From positions 5,587 to 69,586 of the forward strand of contig JAFYAZ010000039.1 in NCBI GenBank assembly GCA_017540455.1: a stretch of DNA of 64,000 nt, given 5' to 3'. Each line of letters opens with the position of its first letter. The first letter of the stretch is position 1. Of this stretch, positions 8,481-24,873 are shown one piece after another. This DNA comes from Bacilli bacterium (lineage in GTDB: Bacteria > Bacillota_I > Bacilli_A > RFN20 > CAG-826). The translations under genes were made by a program, and so were the position numbers. Below the pieces are notes generated by a model that searched no databases, was not told the DNA's origin, and saw only the letters and a program-made list of their open reading frames with translations.

Positions 8481-8549
8481 AAAAAGCCCCCTACTACTTA
8501 AGTAAGGGGCTGATTCATGCAGGATTTGCTAGGGATTATTTGGCTTCGG
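8481..8549. repeat. 69-bp direct repeat, copy B (right boundary of island; functional 3' end and terminator of gene 8536..11613)
   Basis: See copy A. This copy includes the stop codon at 8536-8538 and the last four codons of the 1025-aa gene. Confidence 0.9.
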
Positions 8550-11500
8550 TTGTTTTGGAGCCGTAGTTAAGAACCTTGACGAAGTCTTCCTCAGTCATTG
8601 GACGACCGAACAAGTAACCTTCAAGTCCTTTGGCGCCAAGAGAGATGGCAAGATCCCTTTGCTCAGCGTTCTCGATACCGGTGACGTAGATGTCGAAGTC
8701 GTTTCTCATCGCTGCATCTAGGAAGCGTGAGAAGTTAGCAAGCTCGTTTTCGTTCGTGGCCGCATTCCAGATGAGAGATCTCTCGGTCTTGATGATATGG
8801 ACGCCGAAGGATTTAAGGACCTCAAGAGGAACCTTATCTGGCGTGTGGTCGACACATTCGAAGACAACGCCAAGAGGCGTGAGCTCGGACATGACCTTCT
8901 TGATGGCCTCTTCCTCGTCGAGGAAGAAGGCGCTATTGATTTCAAGATGCATGTACTCACGTGGGAAGCGGTTCCTTTCGAGAATGGCTTTGACCTTCTC
9001 TGGGAATTCTGGGTCCCTAAGGGAGTCGATGGAAAGATACATCGAAAGACACTTGATGCCGACGGCTTTGAAGATGCCTGAACCATATAAGCTATAGAGC
9101 TGACCCATCATCGAGATGGCGCCGATATCGACGCGGGAGACGAGTTTTTCTTTGTTCGCGATAGGAATGAATTCACGAGGAGCGATCGGGAGTTTGTCAC
9201 GTCCATAAAGGGCGGAACGGATATCGCCTCCGATGACCTTGAGGGTGCCGCAGTCGACGATTGGCTGAGTGAGGATCGGAAGGGCGTCAGCGTCAAGCGT
9301 AGCCTGGAGGATATCGAGGATGTACTCGCTTCTCAGGGCTTTTCTTGGGTGGCGGTTTGCGACCTCGACGACATAGCCTGGGCCATAGGTCCTCTCACTT
9401 CTGATGAGCTCGTCTTTGATGGTCTGGACCATTTGCTTGGTGGTGACGATTTCAGATGGGTATGCGACGGCGCAGAAAGCGTAGTTGGCGTTGTATCTGA
9501 ATTCCCTGGCTTCAAGAGGATGGGAAAGGATCTCCGCCGCTTCTTCGACGAAGTCCATCATCTTGATCTTGGTGTAGCCCTTAAGGAGGAAGGAGATGCT
9601 ATATGTGTCGAACCTGTAAAGGAGTTCGCCATAGCCAGCATCCTGGAAGTTGGCGACGATGGAGGACATAAGCGAGTTCGCATCGGACTGCGGGAGCTCT
9701 CTTAAGGCCGCCTCGTAATCGACGAGGGAGCAAGAGACGATATAACCGCGGGCGGTCTTGGCTTTGAGCTCACGGTTGACATCGATTGAAAGAGCCTGGG
9801 CGTTCTTGATGAGGAGGGAATCATCGACAAGATGGCTTCCGGCGACAAGGCCTTGGGTCGTGCCACGCTCGATCATGATGGTCGATTCGTCGTTATTCGC
9901 TCCACGGTACTGGAGAATCGAGATCTGGGATTCGGATGGGCCGATGCTTGGGATGACACGGTGATCAGCGCCGTATCTAAGAGGGCAATGGCTGCATGGT
10001 TTGTCATGGCCTGTACGAAGTACCTTGTAGCAGATATCGCCTTCGTGAGCGCCTGGGAAGGCGTGCTTAAGGTTATCCGACATGTAAGTGATCGTATGGG
10101 TCGGACGGTCGACGGAATAGAGGTATCTGCTGGTTCTAGAGGCAAGGTTATCGAGAAGGTCATGGAGGGAATCGTCTCTCTTAGCGAGGATGTTGCCGAT
10201 GAGCATGTTGCTGAAGAAAGAGACCGCGGTCATGAAGTCTTCTTTGCTAGAAATCGAGGTTCCACTTCTCTTATTCGGAGAAAGCATGTAGATGAAACCG
10301 TAGTCGTTATTTGGGGAATCAAGGGTGGCGATGAAGAAAGACTCCATTCCTAAGGAAAGGATTGGCTCTGCGAGTTCTTTTGGAAGATCGGTGCGGGCGT
10401 TGCCGACGAACATCGTGTCTTTCTTCGCTTCGTTCACAAATGGGCCGACGAATGATAGATGGAGAACGGAACCGAAACGGGAGAAGCCTTTGTTTCCTTC
10501 GACACGAGCAGTCTCAAAGAGGAGACGGTAGTCTCTTGTCTTCTCACCATATTCATAGACGCCGGCGACTTCAAAATCGCTTTGGGTCATGAGCCACTGG
10601 ATGGCGTTCTTCAGGGCTTCGATCTCGCCTGCGTAATCCTTCGCGTGCTTGATCTCGTATTCCCATTTCTCGAAGTTGGCGAGGAAGAGAATGCGTTTGG
10701 AGGATTCGCTTAAGATGCGGTGAGGATAGTAGACGTCTTTGACGCCGTAGCTGAGATTGACTTCCCCTTCTTCTTTGAGGGCTTTCTCAGCTTCATCTAA
10801 GAAGTTATTGAGGGAGCAATACGGATAGATGACTCCGCCGATTTTGGCATGGACAAACTTCTCAACTGAAGTCGACTTATCGATCTTCAAAACGTTGAAA
10901 TTCGTGACAAATCCCTCACAAACCGTCTCTAAACCGAGGAAGGATTCGACGTTGAAGATATAAAGGGCGAGGGTCTTTTCATCGTATTTGCCAAGCATCG
11001 AATGAGGGAAGGTTTCTCTCACTTTGGCGGTCAAGGCTTCGAAGTCTTTTTCTTCGTAGGTCTTCGCGCCCTCTAAAGAGATCAAGAGGAGAGCGCTTCG
11101 ATATGAATCGTTCTTCTGGACTTCTTTCTTTAAGTTCTCGGTGAATGTCTCTTTGTCATAGACAAGACCCTGTTCGATGTCTTTATTGATAGCCTCGTCG
11201 CTAGCTTTGCCAACATAGACAAGACGGTAGTTGGAATAGTCGGCGATCGCCTGGTTCATCTGCTGCTGAATCTCAGTGAAAGCAGGGAGAACCTTGTCAT
11301 AGTCCTTGTTGATGGTCAAGAAGTTGCCATCGGCGAAGCTTCTGATCTGGGAACTGATGTCTTTGGCGAGCTTATCACCTTTCCTTGTGTAATCAAGGCC
11401 AAGATGGATGATGGTGACCGCAACCGTCAAAGCGGAGATGAGGAGGACGCCAAAACTCACCCATAAAAGGATTTTGTTCTCAAAATAGTAGGCAAATGGG

Positions 11501-11613
11501 ATGCCAACGGCCGAAATGACGAATAAGCCAAGGAAGACGGCGCCGACCACTGTCGAAGCGCGGTTCTTAAGGAAGGCCTTAAGATTGACGAGTTTGGTTT
11601 TGTTCTTTTTCAT
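8536..11613 (-). CDS. membrane protein with degenerate GGDEF-like region(s), a Cys-rich sensor segment and a degenerate (probably non-catalytic) EAL domain; candidate c-di-GMP receptor
   Basis: 1025 aa with two N-terminal TM helices. The C-terminal EAL-fold is recognisable (LTQPIVD..., REFIPIA, LEGYLFGRPM). Its key motifs are substituted: EAL becomes SAL, ELTE becomes LEINS, DDFG becomes VDHTP, and EGVE becomes TGIE. There is no GGDEF/GGEEF signature. A CYKV..PCSHCP motif sits mid-protein. Confidence 0.6.
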   Translation of the reverse strand: MKKNKTKLVNLKAFLKNRASTVVGAVFLGLFVISAVGIPFAYYFENKILLWVSFGVLLISALTVAVTIIHLGLDYTRKGDKLAKDISSQIRSFADGNFLTINKDYDKVLPAFTEIQQQMNQAIADYSNYRLVYVGKASDEAINKDIEQGLVYDKETFTENLKKEVQKNDSYRSALLLISLEGAKTYEEKDFEALTAKVRETFPHSMLGKYDEKTLALYIFNVESFLGLETVCEGFVTNFNVLKIDKSTSVEKFVHAKIGGVIYPYCSLNNFLDEAEKALKEEGEVNLSYGVKDVYYPHRILSESSKRILFLANFEKWEYEIKHAKDYAGEIEALKNAIQWLMTQSDFEVAGVYEYGEKTRDYRLLFETARVEGNKGFSRFGSVLHLSFVGPFVNEAKKDTMFVGNARTDLPKELAEPILSLGMESFFIATLDSPNNDYGFIYMLSPNKRSGTSISSKEDFMTAVSFFSNMLIGNILAKRDDSLHDLLDNLASRTSRYLYSVDRPTHTITYMSDNLKHAFPGAHEGDICYKVLRTGHDKPCSHCPLRYGADHRVIPSIGPSESQISILQYRGANNDESTIMIERGTTQGLVAGSHLVDDSLLIKNAQALSIDVNRELKAKTARGYIVSCSLVDYEAALRELPQSDANSLMSSIVANFQDAGYGELLYRFDTYSISFLLKGYTKIKMMDFVEEAAEILSHPLEAREFRYNANYAFCAVAYPSEIVTTKQMVQTIKDELIRSERTYGPGYVVEVANRHPRKALRSEYILDILQATLDADALPILTQPIVDCGTLKVIGGDIRSALYGRDKLPIAPREFIPIANKEKLVSRVDIGAISMMGQLYSLYGSGIFKAVGIKCLSMYLSIDSLRDPEFPEKVKAILERNRFPREYMHLEINSAFFLDEEEAIKKVMSELTPLGVVFECVDHTPDKVPLEVLKSFGVHIIKTERSLIWNAATNENELANFSRFLDAAMRNDFDIYVTGIENAEQRDLAISLGAKGLEGYLFGRPMTEEDFVKVLNYGSKTTEAK

Positions 11614-11624: not shown

Positions 11625-12356
11625 TTATTCGTTGACATCCTCAGTGCGGGCCACGAGGATTCGGGTGATGATCTTGCCGATTGTCGGCATCATCTCTAAG
11701 CCCGTGCGGATGTAGTTGATTCTTTCGCGTTCTTTGCCCATTTGCATCGCGACGCCTTTGATGGTCAAAAGGGCGGTGTTGTTAAGATGGCAAACCATCG
11801 CGATAGCGGCGCTTGTGTTGTCGTAAGCGCGCATGTTCTCTTCTTGGACGAGGAAGTGGTTTTGGACGATGGTTGAGACCTTATTCGGCATGAAATAGAA
11901 AGAGGAACCAGAAAGAAGGAAGCCTCTTTGGACGTATCTCGTCGTCATGAGATAAGCGTTCTTCTCAGCGCGGTCATTGATAAGGTTATCGGCGACGAAG
12001 AATGGGTCTCTTCCTGGGATTTGGCCATAGACGGCCTCTTTGTTATCGGTGAAATCGATGTCAGCGTAGAAATAACGGTCGGCGATGAATAAATCCCCTT
12101 GGCGGAGTTCGTCGCTGAAGCTATAGACCGAGCCGACATTGAAGACCATGTATGGGTCGAACTTCTCGATGATGAGGGTCATGATGATGCCGGCATCAAC
12201 AAGAGATGGTCCTGTCGCGGCAACGATGCAATCCTCACGGAAAATGCTGCCCTGATAGACTTTGAAGCCTCCGGTCAGGGTCACTTCTTTCGGATTCCCC
12301 ATCTTCGCTTTGAAATAGAGGATGTCGTCGCTAGTCGTACCGATTATGGCGATCAT
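11625..12356 (-). CDS. MTA/SAH nucleosidase (Pfs/MtnN, PNP_UDP_1 fold)-like protein, divergent
   Basis: 243 aa. It aligns by eye with E. coli MtnN: IAIIGTTSDD vs IGIIGAMEEE, YGQIPGRDPFFVAD vs YGQLPGCPAGFKAD, and SAAIAMVCH vs ATAIAHVCH. The region of the catalytic ISD(V) reads VAMQMG. Its start overlaps the stop of the upstream EAL gene (ATGA). Confidence 0.55.
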   Translation of the reverse strand: MIAIIGTTSDDILYFKAKMGNPKEVTLTGGFKVYQGSIFREDCIVAATGPSLVDAGIIMTLIIEKFDPYMVFNVGSVYSFSDELRQGDLFIADRYFYADIDFTDNKEAVYGQIPGRDPFFVADNLINDRAEKNAYLMTTRYVQRGFLLSGSSFYFMPNKVSTIVQNHFLVQEENMRAYDNTSAAIAMVCHLNNTALLTIKGVAMQMGKERERINYIRTGLEMMPTIGKIITRILVARTEDVNE

Positions 12357-13927
12357 TTGGCTACCTCCCCTGCTTTCTTCTTCTCGAATGGGTTATTGCT
12401 AAGGAATCTCTGGAATTCGAATTCGCCAAGCGGGCGGCTATAGTAATAGCCTTGGACGGCGTCGATGCCAAGTTCCTTGACGATGTTCTTCTGGATCTCG
12501 GTTTCCACGCCTTCGGCGATGGTCTTCATGCCTAAGGAATGTGAGATGTCATTGATGCAACGGACAAGGTCGCGGCTCTTCTGGTCAAGCTCAACCTCAT
12601 CGATGAAGGACTTATCGATCTTAAGGGTGTCGAAAGGAATCTTCTTTAAGGAAGAGAAAGCCGAATAGCCCATACCGAAGTCATCGATTGAGGTATCAAG
12701 GTCAAGGGCTTTGATCTTTCTGATCATGGCTGAGACGAAGACGGCGTCTTGAGCGGCCATGGATTCGGTGAGCTCAATCTCAATCCATTTAGGATTGATC
12801 TCGTATTTCTCCATCGTTTCCTTATAGAAAGAGAGGATATCTGGCGCAAGAGCGGTTTTTCTGGAAAGGTTGATGGAGACCTTAGGGATACGTTTTCCTT
12901 CGGCCTTCCACTTCTTCATGTTCTTGCAGACCTGCTCGAAGACGTATTTATCGACCTCGATGATACGGCCGGATTGCTCAGCGAACGGGATGAAGAGGGA
13001 TGGAGGGAGAAGACCACGGGATGGGTGGTTCCATCTGACAAGGGCTTCAGCGCCGAAGAAGGTTTCGTCATGAAGGTCGAATTTAGGCTGATAGAAGACT
13101 TGGAGCTGCTCTTCGTTGATGGCGTTGCCTAGTTCGCTAGAAAGGGAACGTTCGCCTTCATCATCCATCATGAATTCCTCGCTATAGACGATGACGTCGC
13201 TAGAGATACGGGATGAGAGGTTATAGGTGCCGGCGATTTGGGCTTTGCTATAGACGTCTTCGAAAGGCTGGCCATGATGGGCGTGATAGACGCCGCAAAG
13301 GATAGCGACATCAGGCATTGTGCCATCTTTCTCGAGGAGATAATTGACTCTTTGGCAGATGGACTGGAGCTCTTCGATGAAAAGGGATTCCTCCCCTCCT
13401 TTTTTGATGAGGATCCAACCCTTGGTTGGGGAGAAACCATAAGCGTAGTTCTTATTGTCTTTGCCAACCGCCTCATGTATCGCGGCATATAAAGCGTCGT
13501 TGATGATACGCGGTCCTTTTTGGCCATAGATGCTACGGAGTCGGGCGATGTTTCTGACATCGAGGACGGCAAAGAGGGATTCCGCTTTCCTTCTAAGCAT
13601 CATGTAGCGATAGTTCTGCTTCAAAGCAGATTCATTGAAGATATAGATCTCCTTCGTGAAGTTGTCTTTGGCGATATCTCTATCTATCGCCGACATCGCA
13701 AGGACGTTCTGGTAGAGAAGGGAGACGACGATGAGAACGGCGTTGACGATGATGGTGACATAAAGGCTGACGATGAAACCAGGCTTGTAGTAGCCTCTGA
13801 TCATGATCGTGTAAAGGATGATTGAGGCGATGGTGTTGATGCCTAAAAGGAGATAGATGATATAGGCGTTCCTCTGGTGGGTCTTATAAGAGAAACGGGA
13901 AGCGAAAAAGTTAAGTAATCGTCTCAT
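12353..13927 (-). CDS. membrane-bound c-di-GMP phosphodiesterase (degenerate GGDEF + canonical EAL)
   Basis: 524 aa with two N-terminal TM helices. The GGDEF position reads GFSPT, so it is degenerate. The full EAL signature set is present: QPKF, EALVRW, SINLS, EIELTES, DDFGMGYS, KIDKSF, EGVET and QGYYYSRP. Its start overlaps the sipW-like stop. Confidence 0.8.
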   Translation of the reverse strand: MRRLLNFFASRFSYKTHQRNAYIIYLLLGINTIASIILYTIMIRGYYKPGFIVSLYVTIIVNAVLIVVSLLYQNVLAMSAIDRDIAKDNFTKEIYIFNESALKQNYRYMMLRRKAESLFAVLDVRNIARLRSIYGQKGPRIINDALYAAIHEAVGKDNKNYAYGFSPTKGWILIKKGGEESLFIEELQSICQRVNYLLEKDGTMPDVAILCGVYHAHHGQPFEDVYSKAQIAGTYNLSSRISSDVIVYSEEFMMDDEGERSLSSELGNAINEEQLQVFYQPKFDLHDETFFGAEALVRWNHPSRGLLPPSLFIPFAEQSGRIIEVDKYVFEQVCKNMKKWKAEGKRIPKVSINLSRKTALAPDILSFYKETMEKYEINPKWIEIELTESMAAQDAVFVSAMIRKIKALDLDTSIDDFGMGYSAFSSLKKIPFDTLKIDKSFIDEVELDQKSRDLVRCINDISHSLGMKTIAEGVETEIQKNIVKELGIDAVQGYYYSRPLGEFEFQRFLSNNPFEKKKAGEVAK

Positions 13928-14985
13928 TGCTTTTCTCCTTCCTTAGCGAATTCGGCTAAAATCTTAGCCTTCTCTTCTTGCTTTATCCTTTCAAGCTCCT
14001 CCGATTTGGCGAGTTCTTCTTTGGCTTTCTTGAATTCTTCGAGGAAGAGGGCCTTCTGCTCTTGCTTCATGGCTTCCATCTCTTTCTCGATCTCTTTTCT
14101 CATCTGGTATTTCTCTTTGAAGATGAGGACGGCTTTCTCGTCGGTTGGATCGATACCGGCGGCAAGCATCTCCGCTTTCATCTCGTCTTCCTCTTTCTTC
14201 TTCTCGACGCGGTATCCCTTGATGAAATCAACGACCGTCATGCCTCCGATGATGAGGATTGGGACGAGGATGGCGACTGGGACGAACCAGACGCTTTGGA
14301 CGGTATGGAGGACGCCTCCGAAGAAGTGGCTATGTGAGATGACGTTGCCAACGTAGTACTTCGATTGGACGGTGTCCCTATATGTTGATTCAACGGCTTT
14401 GCCGGTGACTTTGGTGTACCATTCGGCGTTGAGGTTGTCGCCGCAGGTGTAGAAAGTCATCTCGGATTTGCCACTCCAGTTAGGGATGATATGGGTGAGG
14501 GTGTGCTCTTTGTCTTCTTTTGAGCGGGTCTGGAAGGATTTGCCTTCTTCGAGCTCTACGGTTTCGCCACCAGTGAACCAGGTAATACCGCTATCGATGG
14601 TATATTCGAAGGCAGGAGAGACTTCGAAAGAGCCTTTTTCCCCTGCTTTTGCTGGGGATTCCACGATTTCGATGACACGGTGGGAGACGCAGTATCCGAT
14701 CGCGTCGCTATAGAAGGCGATGATCTCGCCGGCTTTTACATCGTTAACGTCTTTCTTCTGGATGACGACGCCTTCGCCCGCGTCAAAGGAATCAGGATTC
14801 TTCCCTTCCATTGAGTCGGTGAGGACTTCCATGAAGCTATAGCCGAAAAGAGATGGGATGCCATAGTTGTTGTTCTTGGTGATGAACATATCAATCTGAA
14901 GTCCCAAAATCAAAACGATGAGGGCACCGAGGATGATGTCCACGATCTTCGAGGCGATTTTTTTCTTCTTCTTTTGCTCTTCCAT
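13924..14985 (-). CDS. sipW: SipW-type (ER/archaeal-type, S26B) signal peptidase I with large insertions and a C-terminal TM + E/K-rich coiled-coil tail
   Basis: 353 aa. It has an N-terminal TM, the catalytic-Ser box VLTDSMEG (cf. SGSMEP), the His box SHRVIEI and the GDN box TCGDNLNAEW. A second TM (VWFVPVAILVPILIIGGMTVV) is followed by ~100 aa of KE-rich predicted coiled coil. It is about twice the length I recall for B. subtilis SipW. Confidence 0.7.
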   Translation of the reverse strand: MEEQKKKKKIASKIVDIILGALIVLILGLQIDMFITKNNNYGIPSLFGYSFMEVLTDSMEGKNPDSFDAGEGVVIQKKDVNDVKAGEIIAFYSDAIGYCVSHRVIEIVESPAKAGEKGSFEVSPAFEYTIDSGITWFTGGETVELEEGKSFQTRSKEDKEHTLTHIIPNWSGKSEMTFYTCGDNLNAEWYTKVTGKAVESTYRDTVQSKYYVGNVISHSHFFGGVLHTVQSVWFVPVAILVPILIIGGMTVVDFIKGYRVEKKKEEDEMKAEMLAAGIDPTDEKAVLIFKEKYQMRKEIEKEMEAMKQEQKALFLEEFKKAKEELAKSEELERIKQEEKAKILAEFAKEGEKQ

Positions 14986-14989: not shown

Positions 14990-17041
14990 CTATTTGGCTT
15001 TCTTGATGCGGAAAACTTTTTCTTTGCTCTCTGGCTTCTCTTCTTTGGCGTCTTTCTTCACCTTGATGAACTTCGGCGAAGCGGCTTTGTTTTGCTCAGC
15101 GTGAGGACTACCGACGAAGGTGATATGTCCGAATGGGTCGGTCTTGATTCCGCCGATATCGAGTGCGTACTTCGAATAACCCCTACGGACGCGGACCACG
15201 GTAGGCGTGATCTTCTCGATTTTTTTGCTTGGGGCGATGATGGTCACTGTCTTTCCTCTTTCTTCTTCGGAGCGTTTCTCTTTTTCGACTTCGGCAAGGC
15301 GGGCTTTGTTCTTCTCTTCTTCGGCGAGCCTTTCTTCAAGTTCGGCGATTCGTTTGGCTTGGGACTCGTTTTCCTTCTGGAGCGCCTCTAACTGTTCTTT
15401 GTCGGCGTTATATTGCTCGAGCGGAACGGTGAAGGTCTGTCCATCGGAGAGGGCTTCTTCGGAGGCTGTCTCAACTGGAGCAGACTCCCCTGCAGCTTCT
15501 TCAGCGAGTGGCTCTGGTCCTTCGACGATTGGAGCAGGTCTACCCTTGGCGAGCTCATCGGCGATCGATTCATCAAGAGGAGCGTCTTCTTGCGCCATAG
15601 CGAGGATTCTTTCGCGGGCTTCTTTGAGGAGTTCGTTTTCTCTCGCTAAACGGATCTCGGTCTCGATTCTGATTTTTTCTTCGAGCTCACGGAGTTTCTG
15701 GGCTTCTTCTTCTTGGCGTTTGGCTTCAGCCGCAGCGCGTTCTTCTTCGAGTTGCTTCTCTTCCGCTTTACGGCGTTCCATCTCGGCGATGATGGCTTCC
15801 TGATCCATGAAGTTTCTCTCTTCTTCGGCTTGTTCACGGAGCTCTTTGGCGGTGAGCATCTCGGCGGTCAGGTATTCGTTGTCGCTTTCTTTGAAGGCTT
15901 TGACCTCGTCTGGGGTCCAGGCGAAATCCTTCTCTTCTGGCTCTCTTTCTGGGGTGACAAGAAGGGATTCGTGCTCTGGGAACTGGTCGTAGCGGAACTT
16001 ATGGGAAAGGAAGGTCTCATCCTCAAGAGAAAGCATGACCTTTGGCTCAAAATGCTTGGTCATCGCTTTGGCGGATTCCTTCTCATCCTTGGTTTTGACT
16101 TTTCTGTTGTCGATGAGGTGGGTATGGAGGGTGGCCATTGAGGCAGCGGTTAACCCATAGACCTCATTGAAGTAGCTCTCATCGAATTCGCCCTTCTTCT
16201 CCTCAATATCGAAGGAGATGCCGAGTTTGGTGTATGAATCGATGAACTTCCAAAGGACCGCGACTTTGTGGTAGTCAGGGTTCTTTAAAAGGAGGTTGGT
16301 CATCTGGAGTGGTGAGTGGACACTTTTGGCGTCCTTCATCTCCTCCATGAATGGGGACTTGATATAGAAGTTGACGCGTTCGGAAAGGTTCTTGATACGG
16401 GCAAGGAGCATCTTGTTCTTCTCGTATTCGCCTTTATCGTCGGATTCGATGGAGATCTTGATGCGATTATCGACTTCGTAACGGACTCCATCGATCTCGG
16501 TCTTTGAGTGGATGAAAAGAACATCGGAGTTACGGGTCTCACCCTTATCCGAGATGAACTGGACACGTTTCTCAACGAAGAAAGTGAGTCGCTGGATGAG
16601 AGACATAAGAACGCGGTTCTCATAGATCTGCATATCGACGTCGGAGCCGATTGAGAGAATGCGTTCAGGGACGATCTGGCCTTGCTTGTTGAAGCCATGG
16701 ATATAACGGGTATGGGACGCTAGATGGCGGATGGAGGTTGAGTTGATACGCTTGGCCTGTCCTGCTAAGACGAGATCCTGCGTCTCCTTGATGAAGGTAC
16801 GAGGATGGGCGATGATGCGGTCGATCGCGTCAAAGCCGGTGTCGAGCTCGGTGACCCATTTGTCGTCGTAGGTCTTGTTTTCGTGGCGGTTCCTTTGGAA
16901 AACACTGTTCTCCCCGGTCTTCTTGATGGCCTCAACGAACGACTTGAAAGGAAGGCTTCCCTTCAAGAGGGAATCCATCTTCTTCATGTAGTCAGCATGA
17001 ACGCGCGTCAGTTTTGCGGTGTCTTTTTCCTTTTTGGCCAT
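14990..17041 (-). CDS. 683-aa coiled-coil protein, partner of the McrB-like ATPase (McrC-position; no nuclease motif seen)
   Basis: The N-terminal ~340-aa globular part contains ...DMQIYENRVLMSLIQRL..., reminiscent of the (T/P)ENR-hydrophobic motif of McrC/DUF2357 N-domains. Residues ~370-620 are an E/K/A-rich coiled coil. The C-terminus is basic. It lies immediately downstream of the McrB-like gene. Confidence 0.45.
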   Translation of the reverse strand: MAKKEKDTAKLTRVHADYMKKMDSLLKGSLPFKSFVEAIKKTGENSVFQRNRHENKTYDDKWVTELDTGFDAIDRIIAHPRTFIKETQDLVLAGQAKRINSTSIRHLASHTRYIHGFNKQGQIVPERILSIGSDVDMQIYENRVLMSLIQRLTFFVEKRVQFISDKGETRNSDVLFIHSKTEIDGVRYEVDNRIKISIESDDKGEYEKNKMLLARIKNLSERVNFYIKSPFMEEMKDAKSVHSPLQMTNLLLKNPDYHKVAVLWKFIDSYTKLGISFDIEEKKGEFDESYFNEVYGLTAASMATLHTHLIDNRKVKTKDEKESAKAMTKHFEPKVMLSLEDETFLSHKFRYDQFPEHESLLVTPEREPEEKDFAWTPDEVKAFKESDNEYLTAEMLTAKELREQAEEERNFMDQEAIIAEMERRKAEEKQLEEERAAAEAKRQEEEAQKLRELEEKIRIETEIRLARENELLKEARERILAMAQEDAPLDESIADELAKGRPAPIVEGPEPLAEEAAGESAPVETASEEALSDGQTFTVPLEQYNADKEQLEALQKENESQAKRIAELEERLAEEEKNKARLAEVEKEKRSEEERGKTVTIIAPSKKIEKITPTVVRVRRGYSKYALDIGGIKTDPFGHITFVGSPHAEQNKAASPKFIKVKKDAKEEKPESKEKVFRIKKAK

Positions 17042-17082: not shown

Positions 17083-18669
17083 TTAACCAACGTCCTTGAG
17101 GAAGCCGGCGATCTTGGCTTTGGACATCTTGAACTCGGCTTTGCCAAAGAGCTTGGTGAGCTTGGCATCGAGTTCGATTAAGTCATCGCGTAAGTGGGCG
17201 ATGTTAAGGGATTCGAATTTCTTTAAGATCTTCGTGGCGAAGATGTAGTCAACGCCTTCAAGTTCGGTTCCGCCGGTGGCGACGTAGCATGGGACGAAGG
17301 CATTGAGCTGCTTAAGAATACGGTTACCAAAGGCAAGCTTAAAGTGTTGGATGACAAAGTCATCGAGCTCAGTGAACTTCTCTAAGGTCTTTCCGGAGAT
17401 TGGGAAGTTGCTATTGGCTTCGGCATAAAGCTTCATTAAGTATTCGAATGGGAGAGGGAGACCCTCGGTGAATGGCGCTTCAAAGGCGATACCTTTGTTA
17501 TCGAAGAAGAGCGACATAGCACGGTCATAGACCTTATCGGTGATGGTGAAGGTCGAGTCATCGTTGTTCGCGGTGCCGATGAACCAGACGTTCTGAGGGA
17601 TGAGAAGCTTACCATCATGGAGGTGCTTAGGATCGTCTTTCTGCGGGGAAGAGATGAGGTCGATGTTCCAGGCCGATGGGTTAGGCATTTCCATGATGGA
17701 AAGGAATTCGGCGAAGTAGTACTCGATACGGGCGATGTTCATCTCATCGAGGACGATGAGGTTGATGTCCTCTCTGAAGGTGGATTCGTAGATGCTTCTT
17801 AAGAATTCGGTCTCGGTGAACTTCTTGGTGAAGTCGTTGTAGAAGCCTAAGAGCTCGGAACGGTCACGCCAGGAAGGCTGGACGGAGCAGATGGTGCAGT
17901 TGTTCTGGAAGAATTTCCCCAAAGCGTATGGCAAAGAGGTTTTACCTGTACCGGAAATACCTTCGAGAATGATGATCTTGCCGGTTCCCATGGAAGCGAA
18001 GAAAGCGCGCATGGCTGGGATGGTGTAATAGAGTTTGAGCTGGGAAGCGGCGTAGTTTCTGAATCTTTCGACGATTTCCTGAAGGGAGATGTCGGTTGCG
18101 TCTGCTGGAAGTTCGACATGGGTGGAAATCTCAGCGTATTTCTCGTCGACGGCGATAAGACGAGGGAATCTGACGTCTTTCTCGCCTGGGACCCCTCCTT
18201 CTTCCGTTTCTTCGGTTTCTTGAGCGTTAGAAGAGGTGGAAATCTCGCTAGAACCTCCGACAGAGATCGATTCGGATGGGGATAGGCCAAGGGAATCGAG
18301 CTGGAGGCCAAGGATTCTGTTCTTTTCTTGGGTGGCGTTATAGAGTTCGATCTGAAGGTTCTGGACTTCTTCGCGGAGTCTTTCGCGATCGATCTCGGTG
18401 CGGTAGAACTTGATGTATTTTCTAAGCAGCCAATAGATGAGGAAAACGAGTGCGCCTATCGCTGCGACGAAGAAAATGGCAAAGAGGACGAAGAAGAACC
18501 AGCCCCAGAAGCCAAAACCGCTGGCGAAATTGTCGAAAATGATTCCGTACTGGACGAAATCATCTGGGACATCGGCCCACGGGACGGCCCATCTCTGGTT
18601 CAGCCATCTGCCGAAATTGGATAATACGGCGACGACCATTTCACGAAGGTAATTGAAATAGTTTTCCAT
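17083..18669 (-). CDS. membrane-anchored McrB-family (AAA_5) AAA+ NTPase
   Basis: 528 aa. An N-terminal TM helix (FGFWGWFFFVLFAIFFVAAIGALVFLIYWLL) is followed by a short coiled coil and an acidic/Ser linker. The AAA+ core has Walker A LEGISGTGKTS and Walker B plus the McrB signature LIVLDEMNIARIEYYFAEFLSIME (cf. E. coli McrB FIIDEINRANLSKVFGEVMMLME). It also has IPQNVWFIGTANNDDS...VYDRA (cf. VPENVYIIGLMNTADRS). No DNA-binding N-domain was recognised. Confidence 0.7.
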   Translation of the reverse strand: MENYFNYLREMVVAVLSNFGRWLNQRWAVPWADVPDDFVQYGIIFDNFASGFGFWGWFFFVLFAIFFVAAIGALVFLIYWLLRKYIKFYRTEIDRERLREEVQNLQIELYNATQEKNRILGLQLDSLGLSPSESISVGGSSEISTSSNAQETEETEEGGVPGEKDVRFPRLIAVDEKYAEISTHVELPADATDISLQEIVERFRNYAASQLKLYYTIPAMRAFFASMGTGKIIILEGISGTGKTSLPYALGKFFQNNCTICSVQPSWRDRSELLGFYNDFTKKFTETEFLRSIYESTFREDINLIVLDEMNIARIEYYFAEFLSIMEMPNPSAWNIDLISSPQKDDPKHLHDGKLLIPQNVWFIGTANNDDSTFTITDKVYDRAMSLFFDNKGIAFEAPFTEGLPLPFEYLMKLYAEANSNFPISGKTLEKFTELDDFVIQHFKLAFGNRILKQLNAFVPCYVATGGTELEGVDYIFATKILKKFESLNIAHLRDDLIELDAKLTKLFGKAEFKMSKAKIAGFLKDVG

Positions 18670-18693: not shown

Positions 18694-19755
18694 TTAGTTG
18701 TTCGTTGGCGCCACGGTGCGGTGCTCACCCATAAAGGCGATATGCGCATTGAAGGCGGCGTTGATGAGGTCGTTGGAGCATTCTTTGTCCCAACCCTCAA
18801 GGTAGATGGTGATGACGAGTCTCTTGACCTCGTTTGGGGCGATGTAGGTCACCCACTTCTTCGTATGAAGAAGCTCGGAAAGGGAATAGGTCTCCTCTTC
18901 TTTGATCTTGAGGTTTCCTTCGCTGACCGATTTATCAAGGTTGAGATGCCTGATGCCGGCTTTCGTCTTGCCTCCGACACCTGGTTTGGCGTTGTCGTAT
19001 TCATGATGTTCGACATCATGGTCCACGGCGTCATCGTAAATCAAATTGGCGTCTTCATTATATTCCCCATACAATACTTCTTCAAAAGAAGAATTGTAAT
19101 CGATGTATCCGTCATAGAAGCTGACATCGAGGAGGCCGCCTAATTTGGTCTTGCTTCCAGTTTCGACATTCGGCTCATAAATGACATATCCATCTTCCGA
19201 GTAGAAGGACACGCGGATGGCGTCTTCAACAGAGTTGAGGGCTTCCACGCTGGTGCCGGTCTGGACAGCGGTGACCTCGTTGCGGGCGTTATTGGCTCTG
19301 ACGGAGGTGGTTGGGTCGAGATAGACATAGGTTCCAACGTCGCTAGTGAGGAAGATCTCCTGCTGGTAGAAGCCACTTGTGGCCTCGCCGGTCTCACGGT
19401 ATCCCCTGGCAGAAGGGTATTCGCTAGAGAGGGTCGGGAATCTGTCGTTAAGATAGACGCTGTTATCCTGGAACATCGAGCTCACTGGAGTGAGATAGAA
19501 TTCGCCGTCATTGGAGATGCTGTCCCCTGCTGCGAACTCGATCATGCCAAGCTCGTTTCTTTCACCGATGCGGATATCGTGGTTGGTTGCTTCAACGTGG
19601 ATGTTTCCGACGGTGAGGAAGTCAGAGACGCTGAACCAGGCGATCGTGGAGGTGACGAACGCGCTCAAAGTAAGCGAAAAAAGGGCTAAAGCAGCCCAAA
19701 GCAGGCTTTGTTGCCTGACGCCGATTTTTTTCACTCTACGTACGCGCGTAAACAA
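18694..19755 (-). CDS. exported TasA/camelysin-like protein (paralog 3) with SipW-class signal peptide
   Basis: 353 aa. The signal is ...LLWAALALFSLTLSAFVTSTIAWFSVSD (cf. TasA ..GGGTWAAFND, CalY ..GGGTFAYFSD). It shares AIRVSFYSED, YLDPTTS and the C-terminal VITIYLEGWDKEC strand with the other three paralogs. The TTG start lies unusually close to its GGGAGG, so the exact start is uncertain. Confidence 0.6.
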   Translation of the reverse strand: MFTRVRRVKKIGVRQQSLLWAALALFSLTLSAFVTSTIAWFSVSDFLTVGNIHVEATNHDIRIGERNELGMIEFAAGDSISNDGEFYLTPVSSMFQDNSVYLNDRFPTLSSEYPSARGYRETGEATSGFYQQEIFLTSDVGTYVYLDPTTSVRANNARNEVTAVQTGTSVEALNSVEDAIRVSFYSEDGYVIYEPNVETGSKTKLGGLLDVSFYDGYIDYNSSFEEVLYGEYNEDANLIYDDAVDHDVEHHEYDNAKPGVGGKTKAGIRHLNLDKSVSEGNLKIKEEETYSLSELLHTKKWVTYIAPNEVKRLVITIYLEGWDKECSNDLINAAFNAHIAFMGEHRTVAPTNN

Positions 19756-19768: not shown

Positions 19769-20797
19769 TTACTCTGAAATTTCTTCAGAAGCGTTTAACA
19801 CGCTTCCGGTCGACTCGTCTCTTGCCCAGGACTGGGTGAGGTTTTCGCTCGTGAAGTGCATCGACATCGTCAAAGCGGAACCCACAGGGTTCTCACCCAC
19901 ACAGTCGGCGTCGAAGCCTTCGAGCCAGATGACGACGGTGAAGCGTCGGATCTCACGAGGCATGAGATAGGTCTCATTCTTCATGACGATCATCGCTAAC
20001 GGATCACTTCCGTCGTCGTTAAGGAAATTCGTGCAATATCCTTTGTTCTCTTCTCTTTTCGCCGTGTATCCGTTGGTGGTCTCAGTGGTTCCGGTGATGA
20101 GCTCATTGTTCGAGGCGTTGGTCGAGAATGACTTCGCTCTGCGTGCGTATGTGCCCACCATCTCGTGCTTGAGTTCATTCTCGTCGAAGTGAGAGTCATA
20201 GACTCTGACCCTGACGATGTCCTCAATCGAACAGCTGGCATCAACGTTGGATGGTTCGGTGATGGAGGAGAAATCGATGTAGTAGTTTGCTTTTGCCATT
20301 TCGCTTGGCGAGGAGTTCCTTAAGTAGAATGTGTACTTGAAAGAATAGTCTTGGGTGTTCTCGACATCGGTCGGAGCGTTCTTGCGGCTTCCGAGGATGA
20401 CGGATTCATCGGCGACATCGGCATCGACGAAGTCCTCTTCGAGGAGATCGTCCGCGCACATCGGCGTGGTGCACTCATAACCGCCTGCCATCAGGTAAGT
20501 GGTTCTGTTTTTAAGATCGGTGCCTGAGGTGCTTGATGTGAGCGAATCACCGATCGAGAGCTCGTTTCTGACTTGCTCAAGTTTGACGGTGAATGAACCG
20601 AAGTTACGGCCTAAAAGGGCGATGATGATGAGAACGGTGAGAACGCTGATGGACACGCCTAAAATGATGGCGGCGATACGCCTTCTGCGTCTGCGCTTAA
20701 GAAAATCAGGCTCTCTTGGCTCGATCAACTTGACCGCAGAGTCGCTGCCATTATCTAAAGTAACTGTCTCAACAGGCTCTATTTGTTCCAAAACCAT
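19769..20797 (-). CDS. membrane-anchored TasA-like paralog (paralog 4); first gene of the riboswitch-controlled operon
   Basis: 342 aa. A ~40-aa cytoplasmic N-tail ending RRRRRR is followed by a TM (IAAIILGVSISVLTVLIIIALLG). The ectodomain has IVRVRVYDSH and VVIWLEGFDADC motifs shared with the paralogs. A GGAGG RBS lies 2 nt upstream of ATG 20797. Confidence 0.55.
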   Translation of the reverse strand: MVLEQIEPVETVTLDNGSDSAVKLIEPREPDFLKRRRRRRIAAIILGVSISVLTVLIIIALLGRNFGSFTVKLEQVRNELSIGDSLTSSTSGTDLKNRTTYLMAGGYECTTPMCADDLLEEDFVDADVADESVILGSRKNAPTDVENTQDYSFKYTFYLRNSSPSEMAKANYYIDFSSITEPSNVDASCSIEDIVRVRVYDSHFDENELKHEMVGTYARRAKSFSTNASNNELITGTTETTNGYTAKREENKGYCTNFLNDDGSDPLAMIVMKNETYLMPREIRRFTVVIWLEGFDADCVGENPVGSALTMSMHFTSENLTQSWARDESTGSVLNASEEISE

Positions 20798-20879: not shown

Positions 20880-20935
20880 GGCGAAAGAAAAACGGCGCTA
20901 CTTCTCTCTGCGCCGCCGGGACGAGGCTTTCGCCT
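20880..20935 (-). terminator. intrinsic terminator = expression platform of the c-di-GMP riboswitch
   Basis: The minus-strand RNA is CGGCGC-agagagaagua-GCGCCG followed by UUUUUCUUU (stem at + 20893-20898 / 20910-20915). It is enclosed by an outer pairing GGCGAAAG/CUUUCGCC (+ 20928-20935 / 20880-20887). It lies ~85 nt upstream of the first start codon. Confidence 0.7.
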
Positions 20936-20997
20936 ACCATCAGAATCACTTTTGTTCCAGGGCACAAGCAGAAGATTCTGGATATTCACGCTCATCG

Positions 20998-21110
20998 ACC
21001 CAGTTGCCCACTGAATCTAGAGTACTGAACTCCAGGCAACTGGCTACCACGCATATATTGCGAGGCCCTGTAGCTTTGCGTCGCCATGTTTCCATGGGTT
21101 TGCTATACAC
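20998..21110 (-). promoter_or_regulatory. c-di-GMP-I (GEMM-I) riboswitch aptamer
   Basis: The minus-strand RNA is GCGUGUAUAGCAAACC-CAUG-GAAA-CAUG-GCGACGCAAAGCUACAGGGCCUCGCAAUAUAUGCGUGGUAGCCAGUUGCC. It contains GCAAACC, a GAAA-capped stem, the near-invariant GACGCAAAGC, the second helix GCUAC...GUAGC and a trailing CAGUUGCC. This matches my memory of Vc2 and Bacillus GEMM-I sequences. Confidence 0.8.
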
Positions 21111-21114
21111 GCAT

Positions 21115-21143
21115 ATAATAGGTAAGGATTTTTACGTTGTCAA
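21115..21143 (-). promoter_or_regulatory. SigA-type promoter driving the riboswitch and operon
   Basis: The minus strand reads TTGACA (+21143-21138), a 17-nt spacer, then TATTAT (+21120-21115). The predicted TSS is a few nt before the aptamer. Confidence 0.7.
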
Positions 21144-21620: not shown

Positions 21621-22721
21621 ATGACCAATAGATCAAAAATGATTCTCGGCTTAGCCTCACTCCTCGGCGTCACCGCTGGTGCCACTGCTGTTTCCGGCTT
21701 TGCCTGGTTCGTTACCACCAAGACTGCTGATGTCAGCGTCACCAACATTAAAGTCTTCAATGACAACCCATCCCTCTCTGTCAGACTCGAGAACTTAGAA
21801 GGTGTCAAGCTCACTAATGATGCTGCAAACAACTTCGCCCTCAAGGCTGCCAAAGATACAACCAGCGTCGACGAAGAGTGGACTGCTGCTGCTGACCAAA
21901 CAGACTTCGTTCTCCCAACTAAACCACTTGCCGCTCCAACCGTTACTATTGACGGTGTGGTCGACACCACGCTTCATTCCTATGATGCTGCTAATAAGAC
22001 GATTCACTTCGATGCTGCTCCTGGTGCCGGCAAGAAAATCCGTGCTACCTACTATGACAAAGCTGCCTTAACCGACGTCAGCTCCTTGAATGGTAAGGAT
22101 TTCTATGATCCTACCTGGGAAACCGCCAACGAAGGTAAGAAAGCTACCTTAATTGATGACGCGGTTGCGGGCGAGCAGTACATCGCCTTCGATATGGTCT
22201 TCAGCGCTCCAACCACCGGAAGCCTCAAGGTCTATCTCAGCCAACCTTCAATCGAGGGCATCGACGAAACGAACAATACTGCTGACGCTGCTGCCGCTTC
22301 TGTTGCCCGTGTTGGTTTCTACAACGAAGATACCCACGCGAGTGTCCTTACTCTTTCTAGAAACATCGGCGACCATTACAACAAAGGCATCAGCAAAACC
22401 AAAGTTGAAAGTTACGATACCGGTAGCGGCACCGTCAATGCAAACACCGTCGACGGCCACTACACCATCGATCCAAACGTTCTTGACACCTGCACCACTC
22501 TTGCCACCCCATGTGCCACCGACTACAGCGTCATGAGCTCAGCTCCAACTTCAGGAACCGACCTTTCTAACAACTTCATCGCTCTTATCGACGGCTCAGA
22601 CGTTAGACTTCACGTCACCATTTGGCTTGAAGGAACCTCTAACACCACTGATGGAGACTACAGCGCTCCTATCGGCGGAGAAATCAACGTCACCCTCCCA
22701 ATTGTCGCCTTTGGCGCCTAA
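21621..22721 (+). CDS. exported TasA/camelysin-like fibre-subunit candidate (paralog 1), SipW-class signal peptide
   Basis: 366 aa with an AAGGAAGGA RBS. The signal is MTNRSKMILGLASLLGVTAGATAVSGFAWFVTTK. It is Thr/Ala/Asp-rich with only two Cys in the mature part. The C-terminal strand HVTIWLEGTSNT resembles the TasA C-terminal ..LQFSFEATQ. It shares LTDVSS.NG..FY.P.W, LKVYL..PSI and ARVGFYNED with paralog 2. Confidence 0.65.
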   Translation: MTNRSKMILGLASLLGVTAGATAVSGFAWFVTTKTADVSVTNIKVFNDNPSLSVRLENLEGVKLTNDAANNFALKAAKDTTSVDEEWTAAADQTDFVLPTKPLAAPTVTIDGVVDTTLHSYDAANKTIHFDAAPGAGKKIRATYYDKAALTDVSSLNGKDFYDPTWETANEGKKATLIDDAVAGEQYIAFDMVFSAPTTGSLKVYLSQPSIEGIDETNNTADAAAASVARVGFYNEDTHASVLTLSRNIGDHYNKGISKTKVESYDTGSGTVNANTVDGHYTIDPNVLDTCTTLATPCATDYSVMSSAPTSGTDLSNNFIALIDGSDVRLHVTIWLEGTSNTTDGDYSAPIGGEINVTLPIVAFGA

Positions 22722-23879: not shown

Positions 23880-23899
23880 TCAACATCACTAACGATTTA

Positions 23900-24846: not shown

Positions 24847-24848
24847 AA

Positions 24849-24872: not shown

Positions 24873-24873
24873 G

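Follow-up and report, generated by a model that had tools for sequence, protein, structure and literature searches.

The window analysed here is a 64,000-nucleotide (nt) stretch of the genome assembly of a Bacilli bacterium, an uncultured Firmicute of the rumen (GCA_017540455.1, contig JAFYAZ010000039.1), and the subject of this study is a riboswitch of the GEMM-I class (cyclic di-GMP-I, c-di-GMP-I) that heads an operon of eight genes. Promoter, aptamer, expression platform, intrinsic terminator and genes follow one another on the minus strand of the window, and the coordinates of leader and operon given below refer to that strand. The riboswitch class is already known, while the expression platform, a strictly conserved adenine at the ligand specificity position (A20, in the numbering of the Vc2 aptamer) and the link of this regulon to its cargo are new. 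The leader is read as a transcriptional ON riboswitch of an A20 subtype of GEMM-I, a prediction from modelled folds to which a probability of roughly 0.55 is assigned.

Aptamer, promoter and related loci

A sequence-only reading of this DNA had placed the element in the GEMM-I (c-di-GMP-I) family and had staked that assignment on a search with Rfam model RF01051, which returned a significant match at 21114..21032 (56.5 bits against a gathering score of 35; E 2.3e-8). The match is full-length, covering model positions 1-87 of 87, and is the sole Rfam match at gathering level across the whole 64 kb; a permissive Rfam scan of the leader for a second RNA motif gave only chance-level matches besides RF01051. 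The element is a genuine GEMM-I riboswitch-class aptamer, and its family assignment is secure.

The hallmarks quoted in the sequence-only reading, namely GCAAACC, a GAAA-capped helix, ACGCAAAGC and a GUUGCC tail, are present exactly as given. The P2 hairpin CCCAUGGAAACAUGG occupies 21098-21084, ACGCAAAGC lies at 21081-21073, and the strands of P3 include CAGGGC (21070-21065) and GGUAGCCAGUUGCC (to 21035). P2 covaries across orthologous leaders, and the GAAA loop that caps it is invariant. The consensus tetraloop-receptor segments of P3, CUAAg and uAu, are deleted in the Rfam alignment and the GAAA loop is kept; a short P3 is also common in many metagenomic aptamers with the same core. When a P1 helix was sought between the 5' tail and the region after GCC, only matches of 3-4 bp at variable positions were found, none of them convincing. 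A hammerhead-like reading of CUGAUGG…GAAA was rejected because the core does not fit.

The proposed promoter was likewise borne out. It is of sigma-70 type (21115..21143), with TTGACA at 21143-21138 and TATTAT at 21120-21115 separated by 17 nt; it matches the consensus at 11 of 12 positions and is the top-scoring site in the 16 kb scanned, and a promoter-like pair stands at the equivalent place in orthologous leaders. From these elements, transcription would start at about 21110-21107, 3-6 nt 5' of the ligand-contacting A.

The first gene of the operon has only 22 detectable relatives in a word-indexed search. Genomic loci that encode it belong to metagenome-assembled genomes of uncultured rumen and gut Bacilli or Erysipelotrichaceae, and one of them (L001; related loci are cited by such handles) is 99% identical. 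Loci were reached through gene 1, gene 2 and very distant members of the gene 2 family. A GEMM-I-type aptamer precedes the operon in all 20 related loci that were scanned with upstream DNA (L001-L005, L007-L009, L130-L134, L135, L137-L139, L140, L141 and L143), scoring 47.6-71.3 bits against RF01051 when complete and 36.4 bits in the 5'-truncated copy of L131.

Two of these loci show further features. The aptamer of L140 (L140:35-116) scores best against RF03167 (c-di-GMP-I-GGC), at 62.7 bits, yet both the A of ACGC-A-AA, which is canonical, and the A of position 20 are present; its assignment to RF03167 probably reflects the modelled P1, not a GGC-type pocket. L135 carries a second A20-type GEMM-I aptamer (L135:18340-18418) inside the operon, between the PNP_UDP_1 gene and the next gene (start 18437). 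In this second copy the AUG is overlapped by the GGCAACU anti-aptamer, an arrangement that points to translational ON control and not to termination.

The expression platform

The terminator sits 117 nt downstream of the aptamer and is followed by the eight co-directional genes. The expression platform of ~150 nt is a conserved multi-helix relay composed of an anti-aptamer, a P4 domain, an anti-terminator and the terminator itself. The sequence-only reading had proposed the layout of a classical transcription-attenuation riboswitch; the predicted attenuator goes beyond a simple two-hairpin form. The 9-nt complement is an anti-aptamer that makes no contact with the terminator, and a separate anti-terminator and a covarying P4 domain between them would relay the signal.

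The intrinsic terminator (20884..20920) had been described as CGGCGC-11 nt-GCGCCG-U-tract and was confirmed at 20915-20884. A 5' flank, CCCGG, precedes CGGCGC (20915-20910), the 11-nt purine-rich loop AGAGAGAAGUA (20909-20899), GCGCCG (20898-20893) and the U-tract UUUUUCUUU (20892-20884); the hairpin has a predicted energy of -12.5 kcal/mol and was missed by a consensus terminator scanner, the loop limit of which is 8 nt. The length and conservation of this loop are explained by its pairing with CUUCU of the anti-terminator. The terminator is kept in all 12 close and mid-distance leaders, and the distant leaders of L137 and L139 have a different stem at its position, each followed by a U-tract. 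The U-tract ends ~225 nt from the putative start, and the terminator is separated from the ribosome-binding site by ~85 nt of leader that is less conserved.

The ligand-bound state was mimicked by blocking the aptamer region during folding, which yielded three elements, the P4 domain, the anti-terminator and a small hairpin, S8. The P4 domain (20979..21035), a long irregular hairpin recognised from constrained folds and covariation, forms in folds in which the aptamer is formed. It is closed by CUGGA (21035-21031) with UCCAG (20983-20979) and contains an inner hairpin, GAUUCAGU-GGGCA-ACUGGGUC, at 21017-20997; L001 and L002 have a joint 1-nt deletion on both P4 strands.

The loop and 3' strand of P4 include the anti-aptamer GGCAACUGG (21000..21008), which is complementary to the aptamer 3' strand CCAGUUGCC (21043-21035). 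This is the 9-nt complement of the sequence-only reading, which had located GGCAACUGG correctly at 21008-21000; CCAGUUGCC lies at 21043-21035, not at 21045-21053, and the gap is 26 nt rather than ~36 nt. In the window the anti-aptamer duplex has an energy of -19.3 kcal/mol, equalled by 7 of 1000 dinucleotide shuffles. It ranges from -18 to -20 kcal/mol in 11 of the 12 leaders and is -13.5 kcal/mol in L009, the anti-aptamer of which is the only duplex that did not beat its shuffles, whereas all other tests of anti-aptamer and anti-terminator did so (for the anti-aptamer, 7-24 of 1000 shuffles were as good in the three leaders tested other than L009). In L009 and L130 the P4 loop GGGCA has become GGGCU, and the complementarity moves from CCAGUUGCC to GGUAGCC on the same aptamer strand, a register shift that would keep the anti-aptamer function and argues for selection on it. 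The GGGCAAC/U block is kept even in the most divergent leaders (L131, L135, L137 and L139), the platforms of which are otherwise different.

The 5' strand of the anti-terminator, CUUCUGCUUGUGCCCUGG (20957..20974), pairs with the 5' flank, 5' strand and loop of the terminator (CCGG.GGCGCAG..AGAAG, 20920-20901). Its GCCCUG (20963-20958) is also complementary to CAGGGC of the aptamer (21070-21065), and in L137 a compensatory change has produced UAGGGC in the aptamer with GCCCUA downstream. Irrespective of alignment, the anti-terminator duplex reaches -17 to -27 kcal/mol in all 12 leaders, and shuffles were as good in 0-25 of 1000 cases in four lineages; for the window the values are -24.7 kcal/mol and 9 of 1000.

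Two further elements lie between anti-terminator and terminator. S7 (20935..20951) is a 17-nt block, AAGUGAUUCUGAUGGUA, identical in all 12 leaders, and its core UYCUrAUGGUA persists in L131, L135, L137 and L139, where it is followed by a hairpin, usually with a GNRA loop. It is non-coding, as lineages differ by 1-nt indels, and neither ensemble folding nor leader comparison supported a pairing partner for it; S7 may bind a protein, signal a pause or make a tertiary contact. S8 (20924..20935) is a small hairpin, AGGC-GAAA-GCCU, in which two of the four pairs show compensatory change; its variants in orthologs are AAUGC/GCAUU and AAGGU/ACCUU.

Three other candidates were rejected. A helix between S4 and S7 (CAGAAUC/GAUUCUG), as an anti-anti-terminator, has a low probability in all ensembles, and changes in S4 are uncompensated. 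S7/S4 as a displaced receptor for the GAAA tetraloop is kept as a lead only: the distant leaders are similar to such a receptor (CCUAA / UAAUGG) but CCAGAA of the window is not, and a P3 lacking the receptor is common in the subclass. An AUG-initiated frame of 43 codons spans the platform, but 1-nt indels between lineages show that it does not encode a leader peptide.

Conservation and covariation

The leader of ~240 nt is far better conserved than the protein that follows it. Gene 1 of L008 and L009 shares 56% and 43% amino acid identity, respectively, with that of the window, and long stretches of the leader are invariant. Leaders were aligned with a covariance model of the aptamer-formed fold, and the alignment is thus fitted to the structure under test. 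In the 12-leader alignment, 94.5% of cells are paired in the aptamer-formed platform fold, and 12 of the 45 platform pairs show compensatory change, compared with 3.9+-1.5 in column shuffles (0 of 500 reached 12) and 1-3 in slid registers; with L139 added, the count rises to 20 of 45. Covariation is strongest in the inner hairpin of P4 (five of eight pairs, with two further P4 pairs) and in S8. In the anti-terminator it is modest, with three compensatory pairs, the others being invariant and 90-95% of cells paired.

When applied to the same leaders, RNAalifold preferred a fold in which both P3 strands are captured downstream and the terminator is formed. The alternative pairs of this fold join GCCAGUUGCCU to GGGCAACUGG(U) and CAGGGC to GCCCUG. 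Neither partner of these pairs varies within the close set, so no covariation would be expected there. The register shift of L009 and L130, the UAGGGC/GCCCUA pair of L137 and the persistence of GGGCAAC/U nevertheless argue for selection on the pairings of the ligand-free (apo) state.

The operon and its products

The eight genes span 12.26 kb with intergenic gaps of 13, 24, 41, 4, -4, -4 and 11 nt, and the open reading frame (ORF) coordinates agree with the operon, its gaps and its span of ~12.3 kb as first described. The first reading had also seen no internal terminator until 8.5 kb, and this holds as well: a strong intrinsic terminator, an 11-bp stem followed by a T-run, ends the operon at 8485..8511, and weak terminator-like hairpins occur inside it at chance frequency (18 found, 18.3 expected). 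A terminator-like hairpin of 6 bp followed by T6 lies at 19683-19697, within the 5' part of gene 2. Pfam recognises only two EAL domains and one PNP_UDP_1 domain in the operon proteins.

Gene 1 (19769..20797) encodes 342 amino acids with one N-terminal transmembrane helix and a beta-rich body, as read from its sequence, and has no Pfam match; its structure model was of low confidence (predicted local distance difference test, pLDDT, 54) and was not used. In the product of gene 2 (18694..19755; 353 amino acids) an invariant AW (…TSTIAWFSVSD) comes after a signal or anchor helix, and the body is a predicted beta-sandwich. The AW motif after the helix resembles SipW-type signal peptides. The gene 2 family is large and unannotated (1,582 cluster representatives at E<=1e-3), and a Foldseek search with the gene 2 model (pLDDT 78.8) gave no significant match, the best having an E of 0.14 and the archaeal donor-strand filament subunits 7ueg and 7pnb an E of 0.4 with template modelling scores of at most 0.37. 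Both proteins share a C-terminal motif, (I/Y)(W/Y)LEG(F/W)DxxC, and are probably membrane-anchored or secreted beta-rich proteins and substrates of the SipW-type peptidase encoded downstream.

Gene 3 (17083..18669) encodes a McrB-like AAA+ (AAA_5) NTPase; from its sequence, a transmembrane helix was read at the N-terminus and a coiled coil at residues ~55-125. It matches McrB in the PDB (E 0.0018), its DExNxA and NxxD-type motifs align to McrB 6hz4, it matches PADLOC model PDC-M26A at 8.5e-38, and its L135 ortholog passes the AAA_5 cutoff; Pfam detected no homology of its N-terminus to FtsB or DivIC. Gene 4 (14990..17041) is McrC-like, with an N-terminal DUF2357 and a long E/K-rich coiled coil at residues ~390-600 that was read from sequence. 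This assignment was made through the L135 ortholog, with which it shares 47% identity (E 3e-146) and in which DUF2357 scores 37.6 bits against a cutoff of 23.3; the window protein itself has no direct Pfam match. Gene 5 (13924..14985) resembles SipW, an archaeal-type signal peptidase I, and has a long charged C-terminal extension. Its NCBIfam matches (SipW 3.6e-14, TIGR02228 2.4e-10) are both below curated cutoffs, and the Ser (TDSMEG) and His (SHRV) motifs are present.

The last three genes carry domains associated with nucleotides. Gene 6 (12353..13927) encodes a membrane protein with an EAL domain (Pfam 1.8e-65) in which all catalytic motifs are present, and is predicted to be a c-di-GMP phosphodiesterase. 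Gene 7 (11625..12356) is MTA/SAH-nucleosidase-like (methylthioadenosine/S-adenosylhomocysteine; PNP_UDP_1 in Pfam). In an alignment to 4qez its catalytic Asp and ribose-binding Glu, positions that are established for MTA/SAH nucleosidases, are replaced by Met and Thr. The gene is a conserved member of the operon, and its product may be a pseudo-enzyme or may serve as a ligand-binding module; activity as an adenine nucleosidase or as an ATP nucleosidase effector was rejected on account of these replacements and the lack of a PADLOC match. Gene 8 (8536..11613) encodes a membrane protein of 1025 amino acids with a C-terminal degenerate GGDEF-EAL module (Pfam EAL 7.3e-26), the catalytic motifs of which are lost; with a weak match to LapD and a faint GGDEF match in orthologs, it is a candidate c-di-GMP receptor of the LapD/FimX type.

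The gene order, gene 1-gene 2-McrB-McrC-peptidase-EAL-PNP(-EAL), is kept in distant operons, and the c-di-GMP-type genes are therefore core components. A defence system was rejected as the identity of the operon, of which only the AAA+ core matches a PADLOC candidate model. With coiled coils in both its membrane McrB and its McrC, and with a signal peptidase, the predicted cargo matches the CoCoPALM-like class that is discussed below.

The specificity position and the ligand

The unpaired base directly before GCAAA, at 21104, is A where the GEMM-I consensus has G (Rfam alignment, model position 11), and is equivalent to G20 of Vc2 and A14 of Gs1761. Of the three ligand contacts of Vc2 that were checked, A47 (the intercalating A of ACGC-A-AAG) and C92 (in the GCC tail) have canonical equivalents and G20 is replaced by A. 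Because of this replacement canonical c-di-GMP selectivity is not assured, though membership in the fold stands. The class named by the sequence-only reading is thus correct, but c-di-GMP is not to be taken for granted as its ligand, the A before GCAAA having been overlooked.

Position 20 is A in all 21 readable aptamer copies of the leader family of this operon. A scan of metagenomes with the aptamer core returned more than 120 stretches, none new to the leader family, which were used as the G/A background for this position. Among 131 readable aptamers with the identical 19-nt core GACGCAAAGCUACAGGGCC, 122 of them from other loci, 115 have G (88%), 15 have A and one has C; nine of the 15 A-copies are those of the operon family. 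The base pair after A20 is G-C, like Vc2, while Gs1761 has C15-G40 there.

In Vc2, G20 reads one guanine of c-di-GMP through its Hoogsteen face (PMC6140456), and riboswitches for cyclic GMP-AMP (cGAMP), known as GEMM-Ib, have adenine at the equivalent position, A14 in Gs1761 (PMC6140456, PMC5888326). RNAs with A20 bind c-di-GMP through an adenine that is protonated: the G20A variant of Vc2 binds c-di-GMP at 53 nM and cGAMP at 120 nM, and the clostridial Cbe 1-2 aptamer binds them at 30 nM and 463 nM, respectively (PMC6140456). Gm0970 of Geobacter shows ~1600-fold selectivity towards cGAMP (PMC8835794). As Vc2 G20A and Cbe 1-2 illustrate, A20 alone is no guarantee of cGAMP selectivity, and the ligand is therefore not readable from sequence. 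It would be a cyclic dinucleotide with at least one guanine, and c-di-GMP, possibly bound by a bispecific RNA in which A20 lowers sensitivity, is somewhat favoured. This choice is supported by the operon's own EAL phosphodiesterase and degenerate EAL receptor-like protein, by a third active EAL protein within the window, by two GGDEF genes with a canonical GHxxGD motif that adjoin the L135 operon, and by the Firmicute precedent of Cbe 1-2. No GGDEF gene is present anywhere in the 64-kb window.

A somewhat unlikely alternative leaves the ON logic unchanged and takes the physiological signal to be 3',3'-cGAMP, which would make the element a GEMM-Ib riboswitch proper, or some other dinucleotide with adenine, produced by a CD-NTase (cGAS/DncV-like nucleotidyltransferase) or Hypr-GGDEF enzyme elsewhere in the genome, so that a McrBC-derived operon would be cGAMP-induced and possibly phage-linked; the remaining probability falls to other or undecided ligands. 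A20 is the defining change of cGAMP riboswitches (PMC6140456, PMC5888326), and the selectivity of Gm0970 speaks for the alternative (PMC8835794). That all 21 copies have kept A over deep divergence, against 88% G in aptamers of the same core, tells against c-di-GMP, which G binds more tightly, and the real ligand could accordingly contain adenine. The McrB/McrC-like proteins, with their match to a PADLOC defence-candidate model, and the island-like character of some loci (toxin-antitoxin, Bro-N and SLFN_AlbA_2 genes) fit the same view. Opposed to it are the enzymes seen around the operon: neither the 64-kb window nor any of the loci showed a cGAMP synthase (Hypr-GGDEF or DncV/CD-NTase), the GGDEFs that adjoin the L135 operon have the canonical Asp of c-di-GMP synthases, and the EAL proteins of the operon, one active and one degenerate, are typical partners of c-di-GMP. 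Moreover, the G-C pair after A20 is that of the bispecific Vc2 G20A and not the C15-G40 of Gs1761, the single characterised Firmicute A20 aptamer prefers c-di-GMP, and a peptidase with secreted proteins is unlike restriction-type defence.

A broader form of this idea, which is doubtful, is that in Firmicutes this lineage responds to 3',3'-cGAMP, or to a different dinucleotide with adenine, by turning on a McrBC-derived membrane machine, and that, separately, S7/S8 is a further sensing or docking element. If true, this would be the first cGAMP riboswitch regulon outside Geobacter-type exoelectrogenesis genes and a transcriptional link between a nucleotide signal of the CBASS type (cyclic oligonucleotide-based antiphage signalling system) and a restriction-derived surface-assembly system, and the ~240-nt leader would be a single integrated device, not an aptamer with a simple platform.

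Switch polarity and proposed mechanism

The sequence-only reading had considered that ON and OFF could not be told apart by eye. Constrained folds and ensembles do allow a polarity to be inferred, and they point, with moderate confidence, to ON. GCCCUG is common to the pairing with CAGGGC (apo) and to the anti-terminator (ligand-bound, holo), and GGCAACUGG is common to the anti-aptamer (apo) and to P4 (holo); from these shared segments a chain is expected in which ligand locks the aptamer, the P4 domain forms, the anti-terminator follows and read-through results. Forcing P3 gave the anti-terminator with P 0.78-1.0 in 11 of 12 leaders, and forcing the anti-aptamer gave the terminator with P 0.86-1.0 in 10 of 12. 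The gap between the two global folds is only 0.3-7 kcal/mol, which lies within the range of ligand-binding energies. Wherever the ensembles differ (L001, L005, L008 and L009), the locked aptamer favours the anti-terminator and the free one the terminator, never the reverse. An alternative pairing that excludes the terminator and is coupled to the state of the aptamer, the arrangement expected of transcription attenuation, was thus found in silico.

In the proposed mechanism, transcription would begin a few nt upstream of the aptamer. With ligand bound, the aptamer would retain P3 (CAGGGCC with GGUAGCC.AGUU), the downstream GGGCAACUGG would fold locally as the P4 hairpin, and the P4 domain would close (CUGGA with UCCAG). 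CUUCUGCUUGUGCCCUGG, left free, would then pair with the 5' flank, 5' strand and purine-rich loop of the terminator once these are transcribed; it is the pairing of CUUCUGCUUGUGCC with the terminator 5' strand and loop that read-through would require. The terminator hairpin would be blocked, and RNA polymerase would enter the eight genes. Without ligand, GGCAACUGG would invade the 3' strand of the aptamer, and the freed CAGGGC would pair with GCCCUG. This would put the anti-terminator out of action and let the terminator take shape from its CGGCGC/GCGCCG hairpin and U-tract, ending transcription at ~20884. High ligand would induce a membrane-anchored McrB/McrC-like motor, a SipW-type peptidase and two probable secreted substrates, perhaps for assembly of a surface fibre or pilus-like structure, and the co-induced phosphodiesterase would feed back on the signal. 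The model, in which the transcription start, the in vivo ON polarity, the identity of the ligand and the function of the cargo are putative throughout, draws support from aptamer membership, A20 conservation, covariation of P4 and S8, the conserved complementarities of anti-aptamer and anti-terminator, and their coupling in silico.

Several observations weigh against it. The unconstrained ensemble favours the anti-terminator without ligand in five of nine orthologs (the window and four close relatives), and the forced anti-aptamer restores the terminator incompletely in the window (P 0.41) and in L003 (P 0.12), so that polarity rests on relative, not absolute, trends. The decision in vivo is also kinetic, which is a weakness of thermodynamic tests. 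The anti-terminator helix is mostly invariant, and its covariation was scored on an alignment fitted to the structure tested. The P1 helix is not clear, and the 5' tail would be a few nt if the promoter prediction holds. Finally, the invariant 17-nt S7 block has no role in the model.

An OFF switch, in which ligand would promote termination, is improbable. An apo aptamer segment, such as GGCG of CAUGGCGAC, would pair as an anti-terminator with CGCC of the terminator 3' strand and be withdrawn on binding; the unconstrained minimum free energy fold of the window does pair AUGGCG and GGAAA of the aptamer with CGCCGU and UUUCU of the terminator 3' side, and many Firmicute GEMM-I switches are OFF, for example Cd1 of C. 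difficile (PMC9262584). That pairing, however, spans ~190 nt and must outcompete a local hairpin, and it coexists with the anti-terminator in the same fold and is therefore unneeded. The holo state led to the terminator in no ortholog. OFF logic would also offer no explanation for the conservation of the anti-aptamer, for the GCCCUG block or for covariation in the P4 domain, and an induced phosphodiesterase with adhesion-type cargo suits an ON response to high c-di-GMP. It is more improbable still that the aptamer is real but the terminator constitutive or leaky, with regulation elsewhere (S7/S8 as a site for a protein or second effector, or a leader that controls mRNA stability or processing): S7 is the most conserved stretch and the two-state model assigns it no role, several orthologs show little difference between the predicted apo and holo ensembles, and ~85 nt of less conserved leader precede the ribosome-binding site, but the anti-aptamer and anti-terminator complementarities are conserved and statistically unusual, their coupling is consistent, and the leader contains no second Rfam motif and has no evident protein partner.

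Other features of the window and related loci

The window is ordinary chromosome, with genes for DnaE, PolA, EzrA, RpsD, ThrRS and TyrRS. Neither a T-box leader nor a tRNA gene was detected anywhere in the window, although it contains thrS (41956-43926) and tyrS (53913-55163), two aminoacyl-tRNA synthetase genes that in Firmicutes often have T-boxes. The third EAL protein (55381-57345, plus strand; 654 amino acids) has intact catalytic motifs and an unannotated N-terminal region of 400 amino acids. A gene for an ATPase with AAA_14 and DUF4143 lies near the operon in the window (27574-28863, minus strand), in L137 (L137:316-1572) and in L139 (L139:7349-8608), and some loci also carry genes for RelB/ParE (toxin-antitoxin), Bro-N and SLFN_AlbA_2, which gives them an island-like flavour.

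Divergent from the riboswitch promoter are two ORFs on the plus strand (21621-22721 and 22773-23879), these two and a third on the minus strand (25407-26459) each encode 350-368 amino acids and have no Pfam match; the interval 23880-25406 has no ORF of at least 150 amino acids. Just downstream of the operon, a UvrD-like helicase of 991 amino acids with C-terminal topoisomerase-type zinc ribbons is encoded at 4625-7600 (minus strand), and an unannotated ORF of 245 amino acids (7617-8354) adjoins it. An ORF of 461 amino acids at 34719-36104 (plus strand) combines Fpg (formamidopyrimidine-DNA glycosylase, with H2TH and zinc finger) and CoaE (dephospho-CoA kinase), and is either an unusual fusion or the result of a lost stop codon.

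Comparison with known systems

In its cargo, the operon resembles the TapA-SipW-TasA operon of Bacillus and archaeal TasA-like bundling pili in placing an archaeal-type signal peptidase beside beta-rich secreted proteins, and gene 2 resembles TasA in having an AxF-type motif directly after the signal helix. It differs from TasA and camelysin (Peptidase_M73) in lacking a Pfam or NCBIfam match, and its structural matches to filament subunits are not significant. To our knowledge, Bacillus TasA operons have no McrBC-like motor and no riboswitch.

CoCoPALM, a McrBC-derived, pilus-assembly-linked class, was named with a short description and its analysis deferred (Bell et al., 2024, eLife, PMC11090510); neither c-di-GMP nor EAL domains nor riboswitches are mentioned there, and the literature searched contained no follow-up study. 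Three features are common to CoCoPALM and the window operon: the McrB-like NTPase carries a transmembrane helix and a coiled coil at its N-terminus, the McrC homolog has DUF2357 and coiled coils, and a gene of the signal peptidase family lies next to them. Unlike the published description, the module never occurs without an EAL phosphodiesterase, a degenerate nucleosidase and a pair of secreted or membrane proteins; a degenerate GGDEF-EAL protein is usually present too, and an A20 GEMM-I riboswitch stands in front. The operon-specific A20 lineage places CoCoPALM-like systems in a cyclic-dinucleotide regulon. The riboswitch, the built-in EAL phosphodiesterase and the degenerate EAL protein argue that these are signal-controlled surface-assembly machines, not restriction systems, and the regulon link supplies an inducer with which they can be studied.

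As a riboswitch, the element shares with other GEMM-I members (RF01051; Vc2 of V. cholerae and Cd1 of C. difficile) a P2 capped by GAAA, ACGCAAAGC with the intercalating A, a P3 with an AG bulge, a GCC tail in which C pairs with one ligand guanine, and transcriptional control through an intrinsic terminator. It differs in having A at G20, a P3 that lacks the consensus CUAAG/UAUG tetraloop-receptor segment, and a terminator 117 nt past the aptamer that is reached via a relay of four mutually exclusive helices. Cd1 responds to c-di-GMP as an OFF switch decided by about nt 148 (PMC9262584), while the window switch is predicted to be ON. The 150-nt relay, with its register-shifting anti-aptamer and a terminator loop that takes part in anti-termination, provides a natural example of long-range signal propagation in a riboswitch.

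The GEMM-Ib riboswitches of Geobacter (Gs1761, Gm0970 and pilM) likewise have A at the G20 equivalent, and the window element resembles them also in its predicted ON polarity, as for pilM, and in cargo of the cell-surface or pilus type. The hosts differ, a Firmicute and a deltaproteobacterium, as does the pair next to the A, which is G-C in the window and not C15-G40. In pilM, which is turned ON by cGAMP, aptamer and terminator directly overlap and the outcome is settled at nt 102 (PMC9262584), whereas the window has a long relay; the genomic context of the window, moreover, points to c-di-GMP enzymes and not to Hypr-GGDEF.

The bispecific A20 aptamers, Vc2 G20A and Cbe 1-2 of Clostridium beijerinckii, have the canonical pocket with G to A as the sole change, and Cbe 1-2 also has a Firmicute host. 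They are the best precedent for the window RNA, which by analogy probably binds both c-di-GMP (through a protonated A) and cGAMP. For Cbe 1-2, no such fixation of the A throughout an operon-specific riboswitch lineage has been described. A fixed A20 in Firmicutes that apparently use c-di-GMP bears on what natural A20 aptamers outside Geobacter respond to, whether cGAMP, both ligands, or c-di-GMP with lowered sensitivity.

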